Assembly (NCBI GenBank): GCA_036489395.1
Contig: DASXFW010000086.1
Location: 9,333-73,332 of the forward strand
Origin: Acetobacteraceae bacterium
GTDB taxonomy: Bacteria; Pseudomonadota; Alphaproteobacteria; Acetobacterales; Acetobacteraceae
DNA: 64,000 bases
Direction: 5' to 3'
Shown here in pieces: positions 2,987 to 50,410 of this stretch (positions are counted from its first letter, which is position 1; each line of letters opens with the position of its first letter). Both the position numbers and the translations under genes were made by a program. The notes below the pieces were generated by a model. It did no database searches. It was not told the origin of the DNA and saw only the letters and a list, made by a program, of their open reading frames with translations.

Positions 2987-3424
2987 TTGTGCGAGGGACT
3001 CGAGATGGCAAACCTGCTGTTTGCGCCGTGCGCCCGGCAAGACGCCGATGATAGAACGGGATGGGAGGAGCGCGGAAAGCGGCACCCGCCCGCTGCGTCG
3101 CACGACCCGACCAGAAGCGACCATCGATCGGAGGGCCGACGGGACCCGGGTCGCAGCGAATGGATTCCGGCAGGGTCCGGGCGACGGGAGTGGCACGAGG
3201 CTTGTCGGCAACAGGCGCCGTCTGCCGCAGCCGATCCGATCCTTGTCACCCTGTTGGCTGGCCTGGTGGCGGAGATGGCTGTGCCGTGGGCCATTATCTG
3301 GCTCTCGGACGCGCTGGTTTTCGACGTGCCGGCGTGGTCGCTGTGGCTGATATTCGGCGTACCCGCGGCGCTCGCATTTCTGGCCGTGCTGATTGAATGG
3401 ACGGTGCAGGCGTGGTTGCGGTAG
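2987..3424 (+). CDS. Possible small membrane protein (only the hydrophobic C-terminal ~70 aa look coding)
   Basis: ORF 2987..3424 ends in DPILVTLLAGLVAEMAVPWAIIWLSDALVFDVPAWSLWLIFGVPAALAFLAVLIEWTVQAWLR, which gives 2-3 predicted TM helices with fairly high GC3. The N-terminal part is Arg/Gly-rich noise and I could not define a start or an SD. Confidence 0.25.
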   Translation: MCEGLEMANLLFAPCARQDADDRTGWEERGKRHPPAASHDPTRSDHRSEGRRDPGRSEWIPAGSGRREWHEACRQQAPSAAADPILVTLLAGLVAEMAVPWAIIWLSDALVFDVPAWSLWLIFGVPAALAFLAVLIEWTVQAWLR

Positions 3425-3554
3425 GCGGTGCGTGAGACGCCGCGGGCGCCGTGGTCAGTGCGAGTTGCCATCGGCCGGCGGCATCCGACGTGCCCTGCCG
3501 CCTGGAATAATATCAGGTGCCGAAATGGCTGACTCTTCGGCCCATGCCGCCACC

Positions 3555-3638
3555 GTCAATGCCGACGCAGGTCGGCATCCACGCCTTTGCGGCATGCAGC
3601 AACCGTAAGTCGTGGATGCCGATCTGCGTCGGCATGAC
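3555..3638. repeat. RepF palindrome (terminator-like, about 45 nt downstream of the emrB stop)
   Basis: Left arm gtcaatgccgacgcaggtcggcatccacg (3555-3583) faces right arm cgtggatgccgatctgcgtcggcatgac (3611-3638). Each arm is itself a small hairpin (gccgac..gtcggc). Confidence 0.8.
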
Positions 3639-3682
3639 GATGGGGGCGTCGGCGCGTGCGTCATTCTTTGCGCCACCTGGTA

Positions 3683-5251
3683 TCAGTGCGCGCCCCCGGC
3701 CGCTGCGTCGCCCTTCCGGAGCAAAGCAACCGCCAGCGTCGCGCAAAGCAGGACAGTGCCAAGCAGGCCGAAGCAGTCAGCGTAGCCCATCAGAGTCGCC
3801 TGGGCGCGGATGGCGCCACCCAAGGCAATCACCGCGCGATGCAGGGCACCCGCCGGATCCGCGACGCCATGCGCCATGAAATATGCTTGCAGCGATGCCA
3901 GGCGGCTCTGCGTCGCCGGCTGCAACAACGACACATGCGAGTTGATCACAAACGAATGATATTGCTCTCGCTTGGTGAAGAACGTTTCGATCGACGCGGT
4001 GCCGATCGCACCACCCAGGTTGCGCAGCATGTTGAACAAGCCCGACGCGCCACCGGCCTCGTCCGGCGTGATCCCTACCATCGCGATGGCGGACAGCGGT
4101 GTCATCACCAGCGCCTGGCCAAGCGCCCTGGTCACGTCCGGCACGAAAAGCTGGGGCGCGGCATAGTCCGGATCGATATACAGGTTCATGAAGCAGCTTG
4201 TCGCGAACACCAACAGGCCGATGCCGACCAGCACACGTGAATCGAACCACTTCATCAGCAGCGGCACCAAGGGGATCACCAGAAGCTGCGGATAGCCGGT
4301 CCACGCCATGACCTCGCCGCTCTGTTTGGCATCGAATCCCTGCGCCACCTCCAGATACTGCGGCAGCAGGTACGCCGAGCCATACAGCGCGAAGCCCAGC
4401 AGGAAATTGCCCAGCGTCCCGAAGCCAAAATTACGTCGCGCAAACAACCGCAGCCGGACCAGCGGCTGCTCGCGCACCAGCTCGACAACGATGAAGGCGC
4501 CCAGCGCCACCGCAGCGACCAGGCTCAGCTTGACAATGAACGGCGAGCCGAACCAGTCATACACGTTGCCGTCGTCTAGCACGGTCTGCAACGCGGCCAG
4601 CCCCACCGCCATCAGCGCGATGCCAATCCAGTCGCCCTGCCGCAGCAGCGCGTACTGCGCCTTCGAGCGCGGCAAACCGTAGATCAGCGCCGACAGCATG
4701 ACCGCGCCCGGCACCAGGTTCATGTAGAAGATCGTTGACCAGCCGTAATTGTCGGTCAGCCAGCCGCCGATCGTCGGGCCGATCGCCGGCGCGAAGGTCG
4801 CCGTGACGGCGAACCCGGCAAATCCGGCCGTGCGCTTCGACGGCGGCAGCATCGCAACGATGATGGTGAACGCGAGCGGGATCAGCACCCCGCCAAAGAA
4901 CCCCTGCAAACCACGCAGCACGATCATTTCCGGCAGGCTGCTCGCTTGGCCGCACAGCGCCGAAAACACCAGGAACAAGACCGTATTCGCGATCAGGTAG
5001 CGTCGCAGCGAGAACACCCGGCTCATGAAGTCGGTCATCGGGATCACGATGATCTCGCCGATCAGATAGGCGGTGCTGATCCACGCGCCGTTGACGCCGC
5101 CCGTACCGATACCGCCCTCGATGTTGGGCAACGAGGAGTTGGTGACCTGGATGTTCAGCACCGCCATGAAGGCGCCGATCAGCGCGCCGCCCACGGCAAT
5201 CCATGTCCTCAGCGGAACCGTATCGCGATCCGCGGCTGCGATTGTTGCCAT
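3683..5251 (-). CDS. emrB: MFS drug:H+ antiporter, DHA2 (EmrB/QacA) family, 14-TMS type
   Basis: 522-aa ORF with family-typical N-terminus ...WIAVGGALIGAFMAVLNIQVTNSSLPNIEGGIG...AWISTAYLIGEIIVIPMTDF and many TM segments. It lies directly downstream of a HlyD-type adaptor gene. Confidence 0.9.
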   Translation of the reverse strand: MATIAAADRDTVPLRTWIAVGGALIGAFMAVLNIQVTNSSLPNIEGGIGTGGVNGAWISTAYLIGEIIVIPMTDFMSRVFSLRRYLIANTVLFLVFSALCGQASSLPEMIVLRGLQGFFGGVLIPLAFTIIVAMLPPSKRTAGFAGFAVTATFAPAIGPTIGGWLTDNYGWSTIFYMNLVPGAVMLSALIYGLPRSKAQYALLRQGDWIGIALMAVGLAALQTVLDDGNVYDWFGSPFIVKLSLVAAVALGAFIVVELVREQPLVRLRLFARRNFGFGTLGNFLLGFALYGSAYLLPQYLEVAQGFDAKQSGEVMAWTGYPQLLVIPLVPLLMKWFDSRVLVGIGLLVFATSCFMNLYIDPDYAAPQLFVPDVTRALGQALVMTPLSAIAMVGITPDEAGGASGLFNMLRNLGGAIGTASIETFFTKREQYHSFVINSHVSLLQPATQSRLASLQAYFMAHGVADPAGALHRAVIALGGAIRAQATLMGYADCFGLLGTVLLCATLAVALLRKGDAAAGGAH

Positions 5252-5257
5252 GGCCCG

Positions 5258-6388
5258 TTATCCCTGCTGGCCGCGCGTATCGATCGTCGGCTCGACCGAC
5301 ATGCCGGGACGCAACACTCCGATCAGCTTGTCGCCTGGGTCGATCGTGATCTTCACCGGGATGCGCTGCACGATCTTGGTGAAGTTGCCGGTGGCATTGT
5401 CAGGCGGCAGCAGCGCGAACTCCTGCCCGCTCGCTGGCGCGACGCTGTTCACCACGCCATGCACCGTGACGCCGGGGAAGGTGTCCACATCCAGCGTCAC
5501 CGGCTGACCGGCGCGCACGTCGGTAAGCTGCGTCTCCTTGTAGTTGGCCGTGACATACACCGCCCGCAGCGGCACCACCGCCATCAACTGCGTGCCGGCC
5601 TGCACGTATTGCCCGACGCGCAAGGCACGCGCGCCGACCGTGCCGTCGATCGGCGCGGTGACCGAGGTGTAGCTGACGTTCAGTTCAGCCTGGTGCAGCG
5701 CCGCCTGCTGCAATGCCAGCGTCGCCTGCGCCTTGCTAAGCTGCGCGATGAGCACGTCCACCTGCTTGTCCGCGGCGCCGACGGCCGCGGTATCGTGCTC
5801 CAGGATCGCCCGCTTCTCCTGGATGTCGGAGGCCGCCTTCTGTGCGCTCTGTATCGTGCCGGCGCCGCTCCGGGAGAGGGTCGTGTAGCGCTGATAGTCC
5901 TGGGTGGAGAATGTCAGTGCCGCCTGGTCCACCGCCACCGTGTCGCGTGCTTCGGTCACGGCAAGCCGCTGCTGGGAGATCTCCTGCCCGAGGTCGTCGA
6001 TAGCCGCCTGCGCCGCCTCCACGTTGGCCCGAGCAGCGGCCAGCGCCGTGCGGTAGTCGCGGTCGTCGATGCGGGCCAGCACCTGGCCGGCTTTCACCGG
6101 CTGGTTGTCGCCGACCAGCACCTGCGAAATATACCCCGCGACCTTCGGGCTGATCAGGACGTTGTCGGCCTGCAGGTACGCATCGTCGGTGGAGACCAGG
6201 AAACGCCCGGTGTTCCAGTAGTAATGGCCATACGCCCCGGCGAGCGTCAGCGCGGCGACCGCTCCGGCCGCCAGCAGCACCGAGCGGAGGCTCAGCCGGT
6301 GGCGGCGCGTATAGGTGTCCGCAACGTTGATATCGCGTTCGGACACCCGGATCTGTTCGTCGTCGAACGTCGTGATGTTCTGGTCCAT
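5258..6388 (-). CDS. emrA: HlyD-family membrane fusion protein (EmrA-like)
   Basis: ORF 5258..6439 trimmed to MDQNITTFDD... at 6388, with GGGAGG upstream. It has one N-terminal TM, a long coiled-coil (…AAARANVEAAQAAIDDLGQEISQQRLAVTEA…) and a C-terminal beta-barrel motif (…VYVTANYKETQLTDVRAGQPVTLDVD…). There is a 6-nt gap to emrB. Confidence 0.9.
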   Translation of the reverse strand: MDQNITTFDDEQIRVSERDINVADTYTRRHRLSLRSVLLAAGAVAALTLAGAYGHYYWNTGRFLVSTDDAYLQADNVLISPKVAGYISQVLVGDNQPVKAGQVLARIDDRDYRTALAAARANVEAAQAAIDDLGQEISQQRLAVTEARDTVAVDQAALTFSTQDYQRYTTLSRSGAGTIQSAQKAASDIQEKRAILEHDTAAVGAADKQVDVLIAQLSKAQATLALQQAALHQAELNVSYTSVTAPIDGTVGARALRVGQYVQAGTQLMAVVPLRAVYVTANYKETQLTDVRAGQPVTLDVDTFPGVTVHGVVNSVAPASGQEFALLPPDNATGNFTKIVQRIPVKITIDPGDKLIGVLRPGMSVEPTIDTRGQQG

Positions 6389-6723: not shown

Positions 6724-6898
6724 GTCCCCCCTCCCCTTGAGGGAGGGGTTGGGGGAGGGGTGCGTACATCCACTGACCGCGGATGTAAGCACCCCTCCCC
6801 CAACCCCTCCCTCAAGGGGAGGGGAGACCTACGCTCCGGCCGCGACCGTTTCATCCAGGGCGGGTCGGCCCGACGCCGGTGGCAACTTGCAATGACAG
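6724..6898. repeat. Composite repeat: RepC palindrome (6724-6828) plus RepB in reverse orientation (6844-6898)
   Basis: The RepC part is gtcccccctccccttgagggaggggttgggggaggggtgc..gcacccctcccccaacccctccctcaaggggaggggagac. It is followed by gaccgtttcatccagggcgggtcggcc..ggtggcaacttgcaatgacag. The same composite occurs in inverted orientation at 14589-14753. Confidence 0.9.
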
Positions 6899-14588: not shown

Positions 14589-14860
14589 GTCATTGCGAGT
14601 TGCCCACCGGCCGTCGGGCCGACCCGCCCTGGATGAAACGGTCGCGGCCGGAGCGTAGGTCTCCCCTCCCCTTGAGGGAGGGGTGCGTACATCCACTGAC
14701 CGCGGATGTATGCACCCCTCCCCCAACCCCTCCCTCAAGGGGAGGGGGGGGACGTAGTTTCTTGTTAGGCCGTTTGGCCGAAGCAATCTCGTGCGTGACG
14801 AGCTGCCGGCGGCTCGTCACGCACGAGATTGCTTCGTCGCTTCGCTTCTCGCAATGACAG
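14589..14860. repeat. Repeat mosaic: RepB(fwd) - RepC - RepA/E hairpin
   Basis: Components are RepB 14589-14640, the linker ggtcgcggccggagcgtagg, RepC 14660-14753 (left arm shortened) and a RepA/E hairpin 14757-14860. Confidence 0.9.
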
Positions 14861-14965
14861 TGATTCGCTTCTCGCGATGCCAGTAAGGAGGGCTTGCGCA
14901 CGCGCGTCGCCTGATGTTCTCTGCCCGCATGGGCAAACAACGCCCGGCCTGCGGGAGGATAACGC

Positions 14966-18897: not shown

Positions 18898-20070
18898 CTA
18901 CAGCCCGGCTTGTTCCAGCCGCAGGATCGCCCTCGCACAGGCCTGGGCGCGCGGCACCAGGCTGTCGATCCGCAGGAATTCGTCCGGACTGTGTGCCTTG
19001 CCGCCGACCGGACCGACCGCGCAGATGGTTGGCGCACCGACCCCGGCCGTGAAACCGGAATCCGCACAGCCGCCGGTGAACTCGCCGTCTGTCTGGAACC
19101 CGGTGTCCGCCGCCGCGGCCACATAGATCTCGAACAACCGTTTGGCGGTGGGCGTCTGCGTCAGCGGCAGGAACTCGCCCTTGATCGTCAGCTCCGTCCT
19201 GGTGCCGGGGACGTAGCTGCGCTCGATGATCGCGCCGATGCGCGCCATGATGTCGTCCTTGTCCTCCGGCTGCACGTAGCGGAGGTCGATCTGCCCCTCG
19301 GCCCAGGGCGCGACGGTGTTGACGCTCTGCCCGCCGCCGACCAGGCCGACGTTCAGTGTGATGCCGCGTTCCAGGTCGGTCAGCGCGTGGATCGCCTGGA
19401 TCTTGCGGGCGAGTTCCTCGATGGCGCTGATGCCGTCGGTGAACGCGCCGCCGGAATGCGCCGCCTTGCCGGTGATGCGGAAGGCCGAGAACACGCCGCC
19501 CTTGCGCCCGGTCACCACGTTGCCGGAGACGCGGCCGGGTTCGCTGTTGAACACGGCGCGGGCGCGGCGGGCCTCGTTCTCGATCACCGCGCGGCCTTCG
19601 GGGCTGCCGATCTCCTCGTCGCCGGTGAACAAGCCGAGCAGGGGAGCGGGCGAGCCGCCGAATTTGGCAAAGGCGGCGAGGACGAAGCAGTTCATCACCA
19701 GCCCCGCCTTCATGTCGGCCACGCCGGGGCCATAGGCGACGCCGTCACGGATCGTGAATGGGCGGCGCGATGCCTCGCCGTCGGGAAAGACGGTGTCGCG
19801 ATGCCCCATCAGCATGACGTGGCCGCCGGCATTGCCGGCCGGCCCGTCCCAGGGGACGGAGGCGCGCAGGCAGTCGCCGTGCTTCTGCTGGCGCAGCGTC
19901 TCAACCGGAATGCCCTGTGCGGCCATGAAGCGCTGCACCACCGCGCCGACCGCGTCGATGCCGGGCTTGTTGTAACTGCCGCTGTCGGTATCGACCATTT
20001 CGCGCAGCATCGCGACCATCGCGCTTTGCTGGGTGGCGAGCCAAGCGGTGATGTCGGCTTCGGTGCTCAT
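18898..20070 (-). CDS. M20-family metallopeptidase (carboxypeptidase G2 / glutamate carboxypeptidase-like)
   Basis: ORF 18898..20124 trimmed to MSTEADITAWL... at 20070. Motifs: LMGHRDTVF, GPGVADMKAG, FTGDEEIGSPEG. Confidence 0.85.
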   Translation of the reverse strand: MSTEADITAWLATQQSAMVAMLREMVDTDSGSYNKPGIDAVGAVVQRFMAAQGIPVETLRQQKHGDCLRASVPWDGPAGNAGGHVMLMGHRDTVFPDGEASRRPFTIRDGVAYGPGVADMKAGLVMNCFVLAAFAKFGGSPAPLLGLFTGDEEIGSPEGRAVIENEARRARAVFNSEPGRVSGNVVTGRKGGVFSAFRITGKAAHSGGAFTDGISAIEELARKIQAIHALTDLERGITLNVGLVGGGQSVNTVAPWAEGQIDLRYVQPEDKDDIMARIGAIIERSYVPGTRTELTIKGEFLPLTQTPTAKRLFEIYVAAAADTGFQTDGEFTGGCADSGFTAGVGAPTICAVGPVGGKAHSPDEFLRIDSLVPRAQACARAILRLEQAGL

Positions 20071-20488
20071 GGTCCTGTCTCCGGGCGCGGTCGTGGCCGG
20101 CGGGTAACAGAACCGGGCGGCCAATGCCAGCTTGCCGGCCGGTCGTGGCGGGTCAGTCGCGCGGTCAATAACATTGTTTTGTTACGTACCGGCGGTGCCA
20201 GGAGGCAACCGTTCGTCAACCCGTCCTATAGTGACGGCTGGGGAAGCCGCTGGCGCCCTGCTGGGAAAGCCCCGGCAAGGCGCCGGACGAACCTGGAGCG
20301 TGACAGCGGCGATAACACGATGAGGTGAACATGTCAGTATTAACGAAAGGCAACGCGGTATTAGTGGCTCATCCGACCTCAATGATTTGCAAAAAAGTTC
20401 TCACGGTCAAGCGCCACCGAGCTGAGTCTCAGACTGAGGAACGGGTCTCCATGGGAGGAGCAAAAATGGCCGGAAGAACGGCAGATAT

Positions 20489-20534
20489 TTCCGAACTACA
20501 ACAGGATTCCGAATTGACGGTAAGATAACGTCAA
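20489..20534 (+). promoter_or_regulatory. Motif cluster in the AT-rich leader: direct repeat TTCCGAA (20489-20495, 20507-20513) abutting the dyad TTGACG-N9-CGTCAA (20514-20534)
   Basis: Read directly from tttccgaactacaacaggattccgaattgacggtaagataacgtcaaatg. It lies about 115-160 nt upstream of the peptide ATG. I cannot define a convincing -10 element. Confidence 0.25.
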
Positions 20535-20580
20535 ATGAACGATAAAAAATCCTCAACATGGAATCATTGTCCTCACACAA

Positions 20581-20602
20581 GCGAGAGGGATGGTTCTCTC
20601 GC
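20581..20602 (+). promoter_or_regulatory. 7-bp-stem hairpin/dyad in the leader of the repeat-peptide gene
   Basis: The sequence is gcgagag-ggatggtt-ctctcgc, ending 48 nt upstream of the ATG at 20650. Confidence 0.3.
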
Positions 20603-20649
20603 AATGTAAGAAACCAGACGCAAGTTACTCGAAGGAAGGGATCCGAACA

Positions 20650-20922
20650 ATGCTTCAGTCAAACTCCTCAGTAGTTGTGAGCACCGTGCGCCTGGGCGGC
20701 CTCGCCCCGACCCTGAAGCCGGCGGTTAGCACCGTGCGCCTGGGCGGCCTCGCCCCGACCCTGAAGCCGGCGGCCAGCACCGTGCGCCTGGGCGGCCTCG
20801 CCCCGACCCTGAAGCCGGCGGTCAGCACTGTGCGCCTGGGCGGCCTCGCCCCGAGCCTGAAGCCGGCGGTCAGCACCGTTCGCCTGGGCGGCCTCGCCCC
20901 GACCCTGAAGCCGGCTCGCTGA
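20650..20922 (+). CDS. 90-aa tandem-repeat peptide: MLQSNSSVVV + 5 x (STVRLGGLAPTLKPAV-like 16-mer)
   Basis: This is the in-frame ATG inside ORF 20590..20922, with GAAGGAAGGG ending about 9 nt upstream. The differences between repeat copies are mostly synonymous in this frame (see findings). A stop and a hairpin follow. Confidence 0.55.
   Translation: MLQSNSSVVVSTVRLGGLAPTLKPAVSTVRLGGLAPTLKPAASTVRLGGLAPTLKPAVSTVRLGGLAPSLKPAVSTVRLGGLAPTLKPAR
20680..20919 (+). repeat. Tandem repeat, 5 x 48 bp, head-to-tail with no spacers
   Basis: The unit is agcaccgtgcgcctgggcggcctcgccccgaccctgaagccggcggtt. Copies lie at 20680, 20728, 20776, 20824 and 20872, each with at most 4 differences from copy 1. Confidence 0.97.
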
Positions 20923-20955
20923 TCTCAAATCAGCGTCAGACTTCGGCCAGAAGTG

Positions 20956-20982
20956 TTGGACCGGCGCTTTGCGCCGGTCCAA
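20956..20982 (+). terminator. GC-rich hairpin followed by a T-rich tract between the peptide gene and the next gene (attenuator/terminator candidate)
   Basis: The sequence is ttggaccggcgc-ttt-gcgccggtccaa, followed by gttgtttctg. It begins 34 nt after the TGA. Confidence 0.4.
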
Positions 20983-21010
20983 GTTGTTTCTGCCGTTGGG
21001 GAGGAACTCT

Positions 21011-21829
21011 TTGAGCACGATCGTCATGCCCGTAGCGACAGCGGCGCCTGAACTGACCAAGACGCCGCTGGTCACCTTCCACCGCTTCACAGCAGGTGCC
21101 CGCCTGCCGGAAAGAGCCGACCGGTCCGCCGCCGGCTCGTTGCCAACCCGTGCCTTCCGCTACTGTGTTCCATCGACCAGCGCCGCAGCCTACGGCTACT
21201 ATGTGTTCCCTCCAATCGGGTTCAGCGTGATCTGGGACGGCCACGAGATCATGTGGACATGGGATGGCGCCGCCGATTGGCTGCCGCTCACCAACACCCA
21301 GTTCCCCGGCTTCGATGAGGAGTTCCGCGCTGCGGCGCCCGAGGCGATTCAGGAGTGGGGGCCGCCTTTCCTTGCGGCGTTGCAGGAGCCTGGCCTGCTG
21401 CAGGTCTGGACCGGCCTCGTCGCTCGCACTGCGCCTGGCTGGAGTCTGCTTGTGCGCGCGCCGGCGAACCTGCCACGCAGCGGCGCCTACGAACTGTTTG
21501 AGGGCATCATCGAGACCGATCACTGGTTCGGTCCGCTGATCACTAACATGCGGCTGACCAAGACCGACGTGCCGATCGACTTCCGGGCCGACTTTCCGCT
21601 GCTGCAGGTCCAGCCGATCCCGCGTCACGTATACGACGACGCGGCGCTGAACAATTTCGCCATCGTGCCGGACCTCAGCCAGCTCCGTCAGGAGGATTGG
21701 GACTCCTACTATCAGACCGTCGTGCGTCCGCACCTTCAGGAGCATCGGCTGCGCGGGCAGTATGCGTCAGCGGCTCGCAAGCGGCGCGCCGCGGAGACCG
21801 GTGACAAGAGCGACAGCTCAGACGAGTGA
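21011..21829 (+). CDS. Uncharacterised 272-aa cytoplasmic protein (Trp-rich; possibly a DUF family, which I cannot verify)
   Basis: ORF 20969..21829. The TTG at 21011 sits 6 nt after GGGAGG; the alternative ATG is at 21026. Host-like codon usage is maintained over 270 codons. There is no signal peptide or TM segment. Distinctive strings: YYVFPPIGFSVIWDGHEIMWTWDGAADWLPL and TAPGWSLLVRAPANLPRSGAYELFEGIIETDHWFGPLITNMRL. Confidence 0.7.
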   Translation: MSTIVMPVATAAPELTKTPLVTFHRFTAGARLPERADRSAAGSLPTRAFRYCVPSTSAAAYGYYVFPPIGFSVIWDGHEIMWTWDGAADWLPLTNTQFPGFDEEFRAAAPEAIQEWGPPFLAALQEPGLLQVWTGLVARTAPGWSLLVRAPANLPRSGAYELFEGIIETDHWFGPLITNMRLTKTDVPIDFRADFPLLQVQPIPRHVYDDAALNNFAIVPDLSQLRQEDWDSYYQTVVRPHLQEHRLRGQYASAARKRRAAETGDKSDSSDE

Positions 21830-38514: not shown

Positions 38515-38782
38515 GTCATTGCGAGAAGCGCAGCGACGAAGCAACCTCGTTCGTGATGAGCCGCTGCTCGTGCCGACCGAGGTTGCTTCGGCGATGCGCT
38601 CCTAACAAGAAACTGGGGCCCTCTGTCATTGCGAGGCCGCTTGGCCGAAGCAATCTCCCCGGGAGATTGCTTCGGCCAAGCGGCCTCGCAATGACAGAAA
38701 GTCGGCGTTTCATCCAGGGCGGGTCGGCCGCCGCCGGCCGGTGGCCAACTCGCAATGACGAGGTCGCAATGACGAGGTCGCA
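38515..38782. repeat. RepE hairpin (38515-38616) plus RepA mini (38625-38695) plus RepB reverse (38705-38759) plus a 2x gcaatgacgaggtc stub
   Basis: Read directly from the sequence. The module order is the same as at 13066-13229 and 29999-30159. Confidence 0.9.
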
Positions 38783-41331: not shown

Positions 41332-41395
41332 GGGCGGTGCCTTCTGCTGACGGTGGTTGGGCGGGCCTGCTTGTCTCACAGCCGGGGCCAGCCGC

Positions 41396-41446
41396 CCATC
41401 CCATCGAATTCCCCATCCCATCGAATTCCCCATCCCATCGAATTCC
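41396..41446. repeat. Perfect 3 x 17-bp tandem repeat (ccatcccatcgaattcc) in a divergent promoter region
   Basis: Copies lie at 41396-41412, 41413-41429 and 41430-41446 and are identical. Confidence 0.97.
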
Positions 41447-50000: not shown

Positions 50001-50284
50001 GTCATTGCGAGTTGGCCACACTCCGGCGGCGGCCGACCCACCCTGGATGAAACTGAAGCCCCCTGTCATTGCGAGGCCGCTCGGCCGAAGCAATCTCGTT
50101 CGTGATGAGCTGCGGGCGGCTCGTCACGAACGGGATTGCTTCGGCCGAGCGGCCTCGCAATGACAGGGGGCTTCAGTTTCTTGTTAGCGCAGCGAAGCAA
50201 TCCCCCGCCGGCGATCGCACGATGCCCGCGGGAGATTGCTTCGCTGCGCTCGCAATGACAGTGGGGCTGCGCTCGCAATGACAG
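50001..50284. repeat. RepB forward (50001-50052) plus RepA two-tier palindrome (50065-50164) plus RepE-like hairpin (50173-50259) plus a stub
   Basis: Read directly from the sequence. The module order is the same as at 30911-31093. Confidence 0.9.
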
Positions 50285-50410
50285 TGGAGCGGTCGCGTCG
50301 GCCCGACACCCGCGCAGCAGTGGAGGCCCTGCGCCGCCACCTGAAACCGAGGTTGCCGAAAACCTACCGATCGGTATCATCGCCACCGAACCCCAGGCGC
50401 GAGGCGCGGC

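Follow-up and report, generated by a model that had tools for sequence, protein, structure and literature searches.

Small genes whose products carry several core units in tandem are known among the peptides that ribosomes synthesize and that are modified post-translationally (RiPPs), for instance the PatE-type precursors of cyanobactins, the thiovarsolin precursor VarA, the multi-core microviridins and, in fungi, the Kex2-processed repeats of the ustiloxin and victorin type. Here, we analyzed a 64,000-nucleotide stretch of the genome of an Acetobacteraceae bacterium (GenBank assembly GCA_036489395.1, contig DASXFW010000086.1, positions 9,333 to 73,332), which is called the window throughout. 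It contains a short open reading frame (ORF) built from five 48-bp tandem repeats, followed on the same strand by a gene for a protein of the family DUF6065. This cassette resembles the multi-core RiPP systems in having a small gene with iterated units, an adjoining co-conserved protein, a variable copy number, single-core relatives and a hairpin after the precursor gene. Comparison with related loci leaves little doubt that the repeat ORF is a real gene, that this frame is under selection and that the gene is coupled functionally to DUF6065. With clearly less assurance, we think it probable that the ORF encodes a tandem multi-core precursor, and that DUF6065 recognizes each copy of its motif and modifies and/or excises it.

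Reading frame of the repeat array

The product of the repeat ORF, as translated from the window, consists of a 10-aa leader, MLQSNSSVVV, and five 16-aa units, each reading STVRLGGLAPTLKPA followed by V, A or R. Tandem Repeats Finder placed the array at 20680-20915 with a period of 48, 4.9 copies, 95% matches and no indels, and its score of 437 is the highest of any tandem repeat in the window, the runner-up reaching 107. Unit-by-unit comparison showed that the copies differ at eight nucleotides, four at third positions and four causing replacements: unit 1 has GTT where the other copies have GTC, unit 2 carries a V>A replacement, unit 4 has ACC>ACT as well as T>S, and unit 5 has GTG>GTT and GCG>GCT as well as V>R. 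The 90-aa product lacks Cys, Glu and Tyr, and the unit lacks any acidic residue. The GC content is about 43% in the 10-codon leader and about 78% in the repeats, and an AT-rich intergenic stretch (GC 0.47-0.50 versus about 0.66 in the surroundings) has the array at its end. A first-pass annotation, made from the letters of the window, had proposed a candidate multi-core precursor here; its coordinates, the 90-aa product, the leader and every copy difference that it listed are present in the sequence, and the composition agrees with its description of a Cys-free product with an AT-rich leader and GC-rich repeats. It had also taken the bias towards silent changes as a sign of selection on this frame. 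From the window this argument does not hold, as eight differences are not statistically meaningful, but it does hold at the level of the family.

Two readings of the array dispense with the peptide. The 48-bp repeat could be a non-coding minisatellite (a variable-number tandem repeat, VNTR), or the real gene could be the antisense ORF over the array, which runs from 20668 to 21090 on the minus strand and encodes 140 aa. Both profit from an array of 78% GC across which several other frames are open, two of them on the minus strand, and from window copies that differ too little. Both are refuted at the level of the family by the comparison that follows, and we give them practically no chance.

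For this comparison, 76 loci were fetched with the DUF6065 protein from one-genome-per-species contigs (partner identity 47-79%; referred to below by L numbers). They come mostly from Acetobacteraceae and Rhodopila metagenome-assembled genomes, with some Xanthobacteraceae, other Hyphomicrobiales and one gammaproteobacterium. In nearly every one of these loci, Tandem Repeats Finder detected an array directly upstream of DUF6065, with periods of 48, 51, 54, 57, 60, 75, 81 and 84 bp, every one divisible by 3, which argues against a non-coding repeat. The related arrays form a single plus-strand ORF that stops 110-170 bp before DUF6065 and always shares its strand; homologous units read, for example, TADAGKVRLGGFAPTLAP, and the peptide usually ends in APTLPPAR before the stop codon. 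The V-R-L-G cores are spaced by 48, 51, 54, 81, 84 or 87 nt, occasionally by a double 102 or 108 nt, in hundreds of cases. Frame-breaking variants and arrays apart from any ORF, which the first-pass annotation had named as signs of a plain VNTR, were looked for, and out-of-frame spacing turned up in only 5 of about 60 arrays (one 1-bp slip each in L012, L025, L043 and L046; two irregular spacings, of 70 and 59 nt, in L023). All five are metagenome-assembled genomes and, going by the record names, long-read assemblies.

The copy differences were then counted by codon position in 46 arrays (503 units), which were cut by period alone with no motif filter and each compared with its own consensus. 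They number 268/97/1267 at codon positions 1, 2 and 3, and 78% of the within-array differences are synonymous against about 29% expected under uniform mutation. The plus-strand frame of the repeat ORF has the highest synonymous fraction among the six frames. The co-phased antisense frame comes second with 0.68, a value that could be read in its favor; it is high because the third positions of the co-phased frames coincide, and the antisense frame is interrupted by stop codons in 7 of the 46 arrays. Purifying selection on the plus frame is thus shown by the cross-genome comparison, not by the window copies alone.

The start of the gene points the same way. An alignment of 30 upstream regions contains the G.A.GG Shine-Dalgarno element and the ATG as conserved columns, and the Shine-Dalgarno DNA of homologues reads "...KEGFRTM" when translated right up to the start. 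This conservation places the start at 20650 and not at the upstream ATG at 20590, and as a plus-strand signal it further argues against the VNTR and antisense readings. The view of the first-pass annotation, that the frame is translated and selected, is strongly supported at the level of the family by the periods in multiples of three, the predominance of synonymous changes, the conserved start and Shine-Dalgarno element, and a motif that outlasts the DNA repeat.

This motif consists of a hydrophobic, a basic and a hydrophobic residue, Gly, three variable positions, Pro, one variable position and Leu or Phe, and reads V-R-L-G-G-L-A-P-T-L in the window. In the A2 set of motif windows, Gly and Pro are the only invariant residues, and even the Pro changes in more distant clades. 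The cultured isolate Sneathiella limimaris has a called 102-aa ORF upstream of DUF6065 in which Tandem Repeats Finder found no tandem DNA repeat matching the peptide units; nevertheless, [IV]-[RQ]-[LT]-G-N-M-S-P-A-F-K occurs four times in it between unrelated spacers. The same holds for S. chinensis and related contigs; in the Sneathiella isolates and their relatives, VRLGNMSPAF recurs 3-7 times among unrelated spacers with no DNA repeat. A gammaproteobacterium has three copies of KDKGQVVIGSRSPAFK without a DNA repeat, and two further lineages likewise keep the motif. Since the motif recurs where the DNA repeat has decayed, it is what selection keeps, the spacers being free. In such lower-GC genomes, moreover, the plus-strand ORF is the sole one and is called by gene finders, which neither a minisatellite nor an antisense gene would explain.

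More distant DUF6065 genes (38-57% identity) were taken from IMG/VR contigs. Ahead of these genes lie small ORFs whose motifs vary; of those read, the majority have a single copy and about 35 aa, such as MKPSLRIALPVRLPATTDTGRIRFGAGIRMPTSR followed directly by a stop. Other distant precursors include one with two copies (L155), the low-GC L156 with VKLGASCRTPA four times, and L157 with GGGFRLGGLFRLGG. Single-motif peptides of about 35 aa at the same position imply that one motif is the functional unit and that tandem multiplication is clade-specific.

Across all these loci the copy number ranges from 1 (L051, L052, L056 and L057) to 31 (L012). It also differs between near-identical strains: contig L085 has a 100% identical DUF6065 and identical flanks, and at least 6.4 in-frame units against five in the window. 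This contig (array at 1-314) ends inside the array, where gene callers took the plus-strand ORF as a partial gene, and contigs L034, L038, L042, L047 and L054 also break off within arrays. Short-read assemblies can collapse repeats, and absolute copy numbers, the five of the window included, are to be read with caution.

The ORF of the window is effectively unannotated. The exact 90-aa and 110-aa ORF products are absent from a collection of 15 billion proteins, and a protein search with the 90-aa product gave only two weak matches, P0001 and P0002, each with repeats of the same type. In GC-rich genomes, precursors of this family are mostly missing among the called proteins, although they are called in lower-GC genomes such as Sneathiella. 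Relatives found by protein search are few because such small ORFs are poorly represented among called proteins, and locus-based searches were therefore used.

Linkage to DUF6065 and fold of the partner protein

The repeat ORF and DUF6065 are linked in both search directions. Starting from the partner, about 71 of the 75 genome loci that could be assessed have the ORF upstream of DUF6065 (L021 and L022 retain a degenerate remnant, L024 and L067 have none, and L071 is truncated), as do all seven of the loci obtained by exact protein look-up whose upstream sequence is present. Starting from the peptide in metagenome contigs, 35 loci extend 400 nt or more beyond the stop codon, and 31 of these have DUF6065 directly downstream; the exceptions are L088, L098, L123 and L135, and in L123 (array at 1-363) a BTAD gene directly follows the array. 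L021 and L022 keep DUF6065 together with a single degenerate motif, AQVRLGAFEPAS (about 3790-3830). Evidently, a genome can lose either partner of the cassette, or may encode the missing one elsewhere. The first-pass annotation had asked whether homologues keep the unit while varying in copy number and whether a homologue of the 272-aa protein always follows; the unit is kept, the copies vary from 1 to 31 and the homologue is nearly always next downstream. The conserved unit, this range of copies and the single-core relatives of about 35 aa support its reading of the ORF as a multi-core precursor, for which candidate remains the apt word.

Two loci depart from the usual layout around the pair. 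The gap between the two genes is 592 bp (3409-4001) in L055, not about 150 bp, and 16-bp units (GGTCAGTACCAGAGCC x3.4) are repeated in tandem within it, perhaps as the result of an insertion. A 21-bp repeat (CGTCATGGCCGCCCCGCCTCC x7.5) lies just past the DUF6065 gene in L019 (3780-4030), abutting an inverted copy (GGCCATGACGGGGGGCGGGGT x4.5).

The TTG start of the partner gene in the window has GGAGGA 5 nt upstream, and the same start is called in the near-identical metagenome contig. The protein matches PF19541 with 60.5 bits (cut-off 26.6), which places it in DUF6065. The match covers profile positions 84-171 of 236 only, and the window partner therefore belongs to a divergent DUF6065 subfamily; all 85 aligned relatives match PF19541 as well. 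In a profile search, 1,129 clusters at 50% identity matched DUF6065, of which 285 had an E-value below 1e-30. The cassette occurs in soil and peat Acetobacteraceae, Xanthobacteraceae, marine Sneathiella isolates and Gammaproteobacteria.

With the 85-sequence alignment, AlphaFold produced a confident model of DUF6065 (pLDDT, the predicted local distance difference test score, 90.6; predicted TM-score 0.79), whereas the single-sequence model reached a pLDDT of 35.6. In the PDB, each of the top 50 Foldseek matches of this model is a trimeric dUTPase (E 5.6e-5 to 1.3e-3, probability 1.0), with a target TM-score of 0.45-0.77 and a query TM-score of about 0.35. Among viral models, uncharacterized phage proteins of comparable size match best, and viral dUTPases come next. 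Judged by its model, DUF6065 has a dUTPase-like beta-barrel fold, extended by an N-terminal segment of about 55 residues and by C-terminal helices. By eye, two stretches look like dUTPase motifs, EGIIETD-WFGPL like motif III (G(V/L)IDxDYxG) and L-x-Q-V-Q-P like motif IV, and hhalign places them in the same register. Compared by hhalign with Escherichia coli Dut (E 0.52) and Dcd (E 0.19), the DUF6065 profile reaches no significant score; the Dcd sequence used is exactly that of 1xs1. None of the 85 members has a Pfam dUTPase or DCD match, a sequence-profile search of the PDB with DUF6065 found nothing (best E 1.4), and the motif I Asp and the glycine-rich motif V of dUTPases are absent from the DUF6065 consensus as read by eye. 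We therefore regard DUF6065 as a structural relative of dUTPases and probably not a dUTPase itself. We also considered whether the D-V-R-L-G-N motif of the peptide derives from, or mimics, the N-terminal D-[LV]-R-L-G strand of dCTP deaminase. This idea found no support and is a lead at most: the motif profile retrieved no Dcd chain from the PDB, its best match there being an unrelated acetamidase (E 1.6).

What the partner does with the peptide can be read in two ways. The alignment has 28 invariant columns, including R30, C47, R144, N148, E159, D165 and Q194, while D32 and E48 are nearly invariant, and this pattern of polar and charged residues suits an enzyme better than a passive scaffold. 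The repeat protein could also stay unprocessed and pair with DUF6065 as an intact, intrinsically disordered, multivalent molecule with N copies of a short linear binding motif, serving for example as a scaffold, sponge, inhibitor or regulator. The pairing and the conserved motif prove a relationship of the interaction type, not chemistry; the motif has no universal reactive residue, no dedicated protease is conserved, and multivalency would be sensible with a trimeric partner, as proteins of the dUTPase fold typically are. A scaffold fits badly with the single-motif peptides of 35-45 aa in L051, L052, L056, L057, L060, L143, L148 and L152. The copy number, which swings between 1 and 31 and differs even among near-identical strains, points to dosage and not to architecture, and neither the enzyme-like invariant charged residues of DUF6065 nor the small-molecule exporters that recur nearby would be expected of a passive multivalent pair. 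On balance, we consider an unprocessed partner rather unlikely.

Putative regulatory elements and neighboring genes

A non-coding block about 80-140 nt before the ATG is nearly invariant over both Acetobacteraceae synteny classes in the upstream alignment, among loci whose flanking genes differ (Table 1). Within it is the palindrome TTGACG-N9-CGTCAA (20514-20534), of which the window has a single copy. In 38 loci the palindrome keeps this relative position, and the distant L082 has it too, with a divergent BTAD-TPR regulator gene on one side and the precursor gene on the other. We presume that the block is an operator or promoter region, and the palindrome looks like a putative operator of a dimeric regulator. 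A promoter scan found no canonical sigma-70 promoter on the plus strand upstream of the precursor gene, and by eye the block fits neither a sigma-70 nor a sigma-54 promoter. No Rfam family was found in 19800-21400, where the only match was a sub-threshold "CRISPR-DR20" that falls on the intercistronic hairpin.

This hairpin, between the stop of the precursor gene and the start of DUF6065, has a 12-bp stem with 9 G-C pairs, a 3-nt loop and a T-rich tail in the window. Comparably strong hairpins occur in nearly all loci, with stem sequences that differ between clades. The best 45-nt folding energy of the intercistronic regions has a median of -24 kcal/mol versus -17.7 kcal/mol for length-matched coding controls (p=3e-15). 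The element appears terminator- or attenuator-like. In operons for peptide natural products, a stem-loop that separates the precursor gene from the enzyme genes is well known as a means to make more precursor than enzyme transcript.

Such a hairpin also raises the question of whether the ORF is a cis-regulatory leader or upstream ORF, in which nascent-peptide stalling or the position of the ribosome at the hairpin controls read-through into DUF6065 and the peptide itself is functionless. The position of the hairpin, about 35 nt after the stop and before DUF6065, would suit this, and R/G/P-rich motifs can stall ribosomes, as in leaders of the SecM and TnaC type, to which the resemblance is loose. 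Nevertheless, arrays of up to 31 units and 600 aa go far beyond any known leader peptide, and purifying selection acts on every copy, not on the last alone. Furthermore, the peptide is still conserved in L076, L077 and L080, where the gap is 19-32 nt with no strong hairpin, and precursors without a downstream DUF6065 exist. We therefore regard a cis-acting leader as very improbable.

Table 1 Features of the cassette and its surroundings in the window
Feature	Position	Strand	Remarks
Five head-to-tail 48-bp units	20680-20919	+	Each encodes one copy of the motif V-R-L-G-G-x-A-P-x-L
Candidate precursor-peptide gene	20650-20922	+	ATG 20650, TGA 20920-20922; 90 aa
DUF6065 partner gene	21011-21829	+	Pfam PF19541; 272 aa from TTG 21011 or 267 aa from ATG 21026
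Conserved non-coding block, about 58 nt, CGAATTGACGGTAAGATAACGTCAAATGAACGATAAAAAATCCTCAACATGGAATCAT	20510-20567		Upstream alignment
Shine-Dalgarno-like GAAGGAAGGG	20631-20640	+	10 nt before ATG 20650
Intercistronic GC-rich hairpin, then GTTGTTTCTG	20956-20992	+	Terminator scan
M20 peptidase gene	18898-20124	-	Divergent neighbor of the precursor gene
BTAD and TPR transcriptional regulator, 726 aa	21831-24011	-	Pfam BTAD, TPR; convergent with DUF6065

Among the neighborhoods compared, only the pair of precursor gene and DUF6065 is universal. Acetobacteraceae loci of class A (about 40) have the order PAS histidine kinase, TldD, precursor, DUF6065 and SGNH-type hydrolase, and those of class B (16 loci, the window included) have M20 peptidase, precursor and DUF6065, with BTAD-TPR and GshA on the opposite strand. 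The adjacent peptidases, M20 in the window and TldD in class A, may reflect coincidental synteny. The GCS2 protein past the BTAD-TPR gene is the housekeeping plant-type glutamate-cysteine ligase GshA (TIGR01436, 573 bits versus a cut-off of 463); it had been considered as an ATP-dependent ligase for the peptide and was rejected on this identity.

Thirteen closely related loci have the BTAD-TPR regulator next to the cassette, and class A, with its roughly 40 loci, lacks it. Outside Acetobacteraceae, BTAD-TPR genes adjoin the cassette in L060, L061, L063, L076, L080 and L082 (25-41% identity where measured), and in L080 and L082 they lie divergently upstream. EamA transporters are adjacent in L059 (1969-2955), L062 (2036-2950), L080 (5769-6641) and L082 (5870-6814), the gene in L082 overlapping the stop codon of DUF6065. 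An MFS transporter adjoins the pair in L061 and in L062. Since both recur in unrelated contexts, the regulator and the small-molecule exporter may be accessory parts of the system. In L076, a protein-methyltransferase-like gene (4782-5807) is directly downstream. PADLOC and PHROGs gave no link of the cassette to defense systems or phages, and the IMG/VR matches look like host flanks and lie near contig ends.

The window holds several other short repeats away from the cassette. Elements of the type TCGCAATGAC(A/G)(G/A)(T/G)G, tandem or dispersed, lie at 14841-14884, 38750-38782 and 50243-50287, resembling a family of REP-type intergenic repeats. A 12-bp unit, TTGAGGGAGGGG, and its reverse complement, ACCCCTCCCCCA, are each duplicated at 6737-6761 and 6791-6815 as an inverted pair about 30 bp apart, and a third copy of this element lies at 14714-14738. 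A perfect 17-bp tandem repeat (CCCATCCCATCGAATTC x3.1), whose period is not a multiple of 3, is found at 41395-41446.

Proposed maturation scheme and comparison with known systems

We propose that the first gene would give a short, cytoplasmic, Cys-free peptide composed of a leader of about 10 residues and N tandem units. DUF6065 would recognize the strand-turn motif in each unit and modify and/or excise the motif copies, yielding N small products per translation, so that more copies would mean more product. Expression would be set by the palindromic operator, the strong Shine-Dalgarno element and the intercistronic hairpin, the last of which would keep the precursor transcript more abundant than that of the partner. 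The linked BTAD-TPR regulators and EamA or MFS exporters would fit a small product that is exported or sensed. Motif recognition by DUF6065, its chemistry, proteolytic release, export and the role of the regulator are steps that we infer. Options for the chemistry are backbone modification, cleavage and modification of the Arg or Lys that is usually present, and a nucleotide-dependent chemistry inherited from the dUTPase fold is speculation.

Several points weigh against processing by DUF6065. Translation, modification and cleavage are deduced from sequence patterns. We know of no peptide-modifying activity for the dUTPase fold, nor of any RiPP enzyme that has it. The leader of about 10 aa is very short for a RiPP. 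No reactive side chain is universally conserved, Lys being missing in the window and Arg in L076 and L080, and no dedicated protease, YcaO, radical SAM, LanB/C, ATP-grasp or RiPP recognition element is conserved beside the pair. Finally, DUF6065 exists with a decayed or absent precursor (L021, L022, L024 and L067), and the precursor without DUF6065 (L088, L098, L123 and L135).

A bolder form of the proposal would make DUF6065 the founder of a new class of peptide-maturation enzymes derived from the dUTPase/dCTP-deaminase barrel. It would act repeatedly on the strand-turn motif of a tandem polyprecursor, perhaps by nucleotide-dependent chemistry inherited from that barrel, such as nucleotidylation or phosphoryl transfer, or by backbone modification, and release a small, conserved, signal- or cofactor-like product, exported by EamA or MFS transporters and sensed or controlled by BTAD-TPR regulators in many soil and marine Proteobacteria. 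We put this forward tentatively and hold it to be doubtful as a whole; if true, it would amount to a new RiPP class with a new enzyme fold.

If DUF6065 does mature the peptide, the cassette would provide the first functional handle on this family and a new use for the dUTPase barrel, and would represent a natural tuning of product dosage by repeat number, from 1 to 31 copies and varying between near-identical strains. It would also be a directly testable two-gene system, with S. limimaris and S. chinensis as cultured hosts. RiPP searches led by enzyme families would miss it, the partner being a DUF with a nucleotide-hydrolase-like fold and the precursor often unannotated. If the peptide is instead left unprocessed, a conserved repeat-motif protein with a dUTPase-fold partner would still be an undescribed protein-protein system.

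No credible Pfam or NCBIfam family was found for the precursor peptide. Nothing came of full-text literature searches on DUF6065, PF19541 or the motif strings, one that combined dUTPase with RiPP terms returned one unrelated paper only, and one on the mining of multicore or tandem-repeat RiPPs had nothing relevant among the papers listed. This agrees with the first-pass annotation, which did not recognize the 16-mer from any described family. One family match was to PqqA (NCBIfam TIGR02107), likewise a short ribosomal peptide, to which the 90-aa product scores 22.2 bits in sum against a cut-off of 20. The N-terminal K-P-A-x-x-x-x-R-L-G of PqqA does resemble the K-P-A-V-S-T-V-R-L-G of the unit. 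This identity was rejected, as the score sums five weak 10-residue matches, none of which passes alone, and is an artefact of repeat summing. The E-x-x-x-Y pair of PqqA, from which PQQ is formed, is absent from the product and no pqqB-E genes are adjacent, so that the peptide falls outside the PqqA family; most members of the present family read D-x-G-K-V-R-L-G, without K-P-A. The Pfam matches of other precursors (Gp5_trimer_C, DUF6859, HpcH and others) were likewise dismissed as repeat artefacts, with no single stretch clearly passing.

A possible functional analogy is that with peptide pheromones of the RRNPP type, which share with the cassette a small peptide gene beside a TPR transcription factor and exporters that recur nearby. 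The regulator here, however, is a BTAD/winged-helix-TPR protein and not an RRNPP member, and the precursor has no secretion signal. The peptide-binding proteins CgnB and CgnE of crocagin were considered as a precedent and set aside, being aminopeptidase-derived and unrelated (PMC10070186).

Compared with the multi-core RiPPs, the cassette lacks the PatA/PatG proteases, YcaO/TfuA, an ATP-grasp ligase and DUF3328, both in the window and in the conserved neighbor clusters. Recognition sequences flank hypervariable cores in cyanobactins, whereas the arrangement is reversed here, with a conserved repeated motif and variable spacers, which sets the peptide apart from that family. It is equally distinct from the graspetides and microviridins, which are marked by an ATP-grasp ligase gene and by Thr/Ser-Asp/Glu-Lys cross-link residues, as it has no adjacent ATP-grasp gene and no acidic residue in the window unit. 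Up to 31 copies seem unusually many for bacteria and, if the units are RiPP cores, would be the highest bacterial core multiplicity that we know of. Taken together, the cassette is an undescribed precursor family with an unprecedented partner fold, placed within the scheme of a ribosomal precursor and its presumed maturation protein, and it would be categorically new only if its chemistry or role lies outside the RiPP paradigm.

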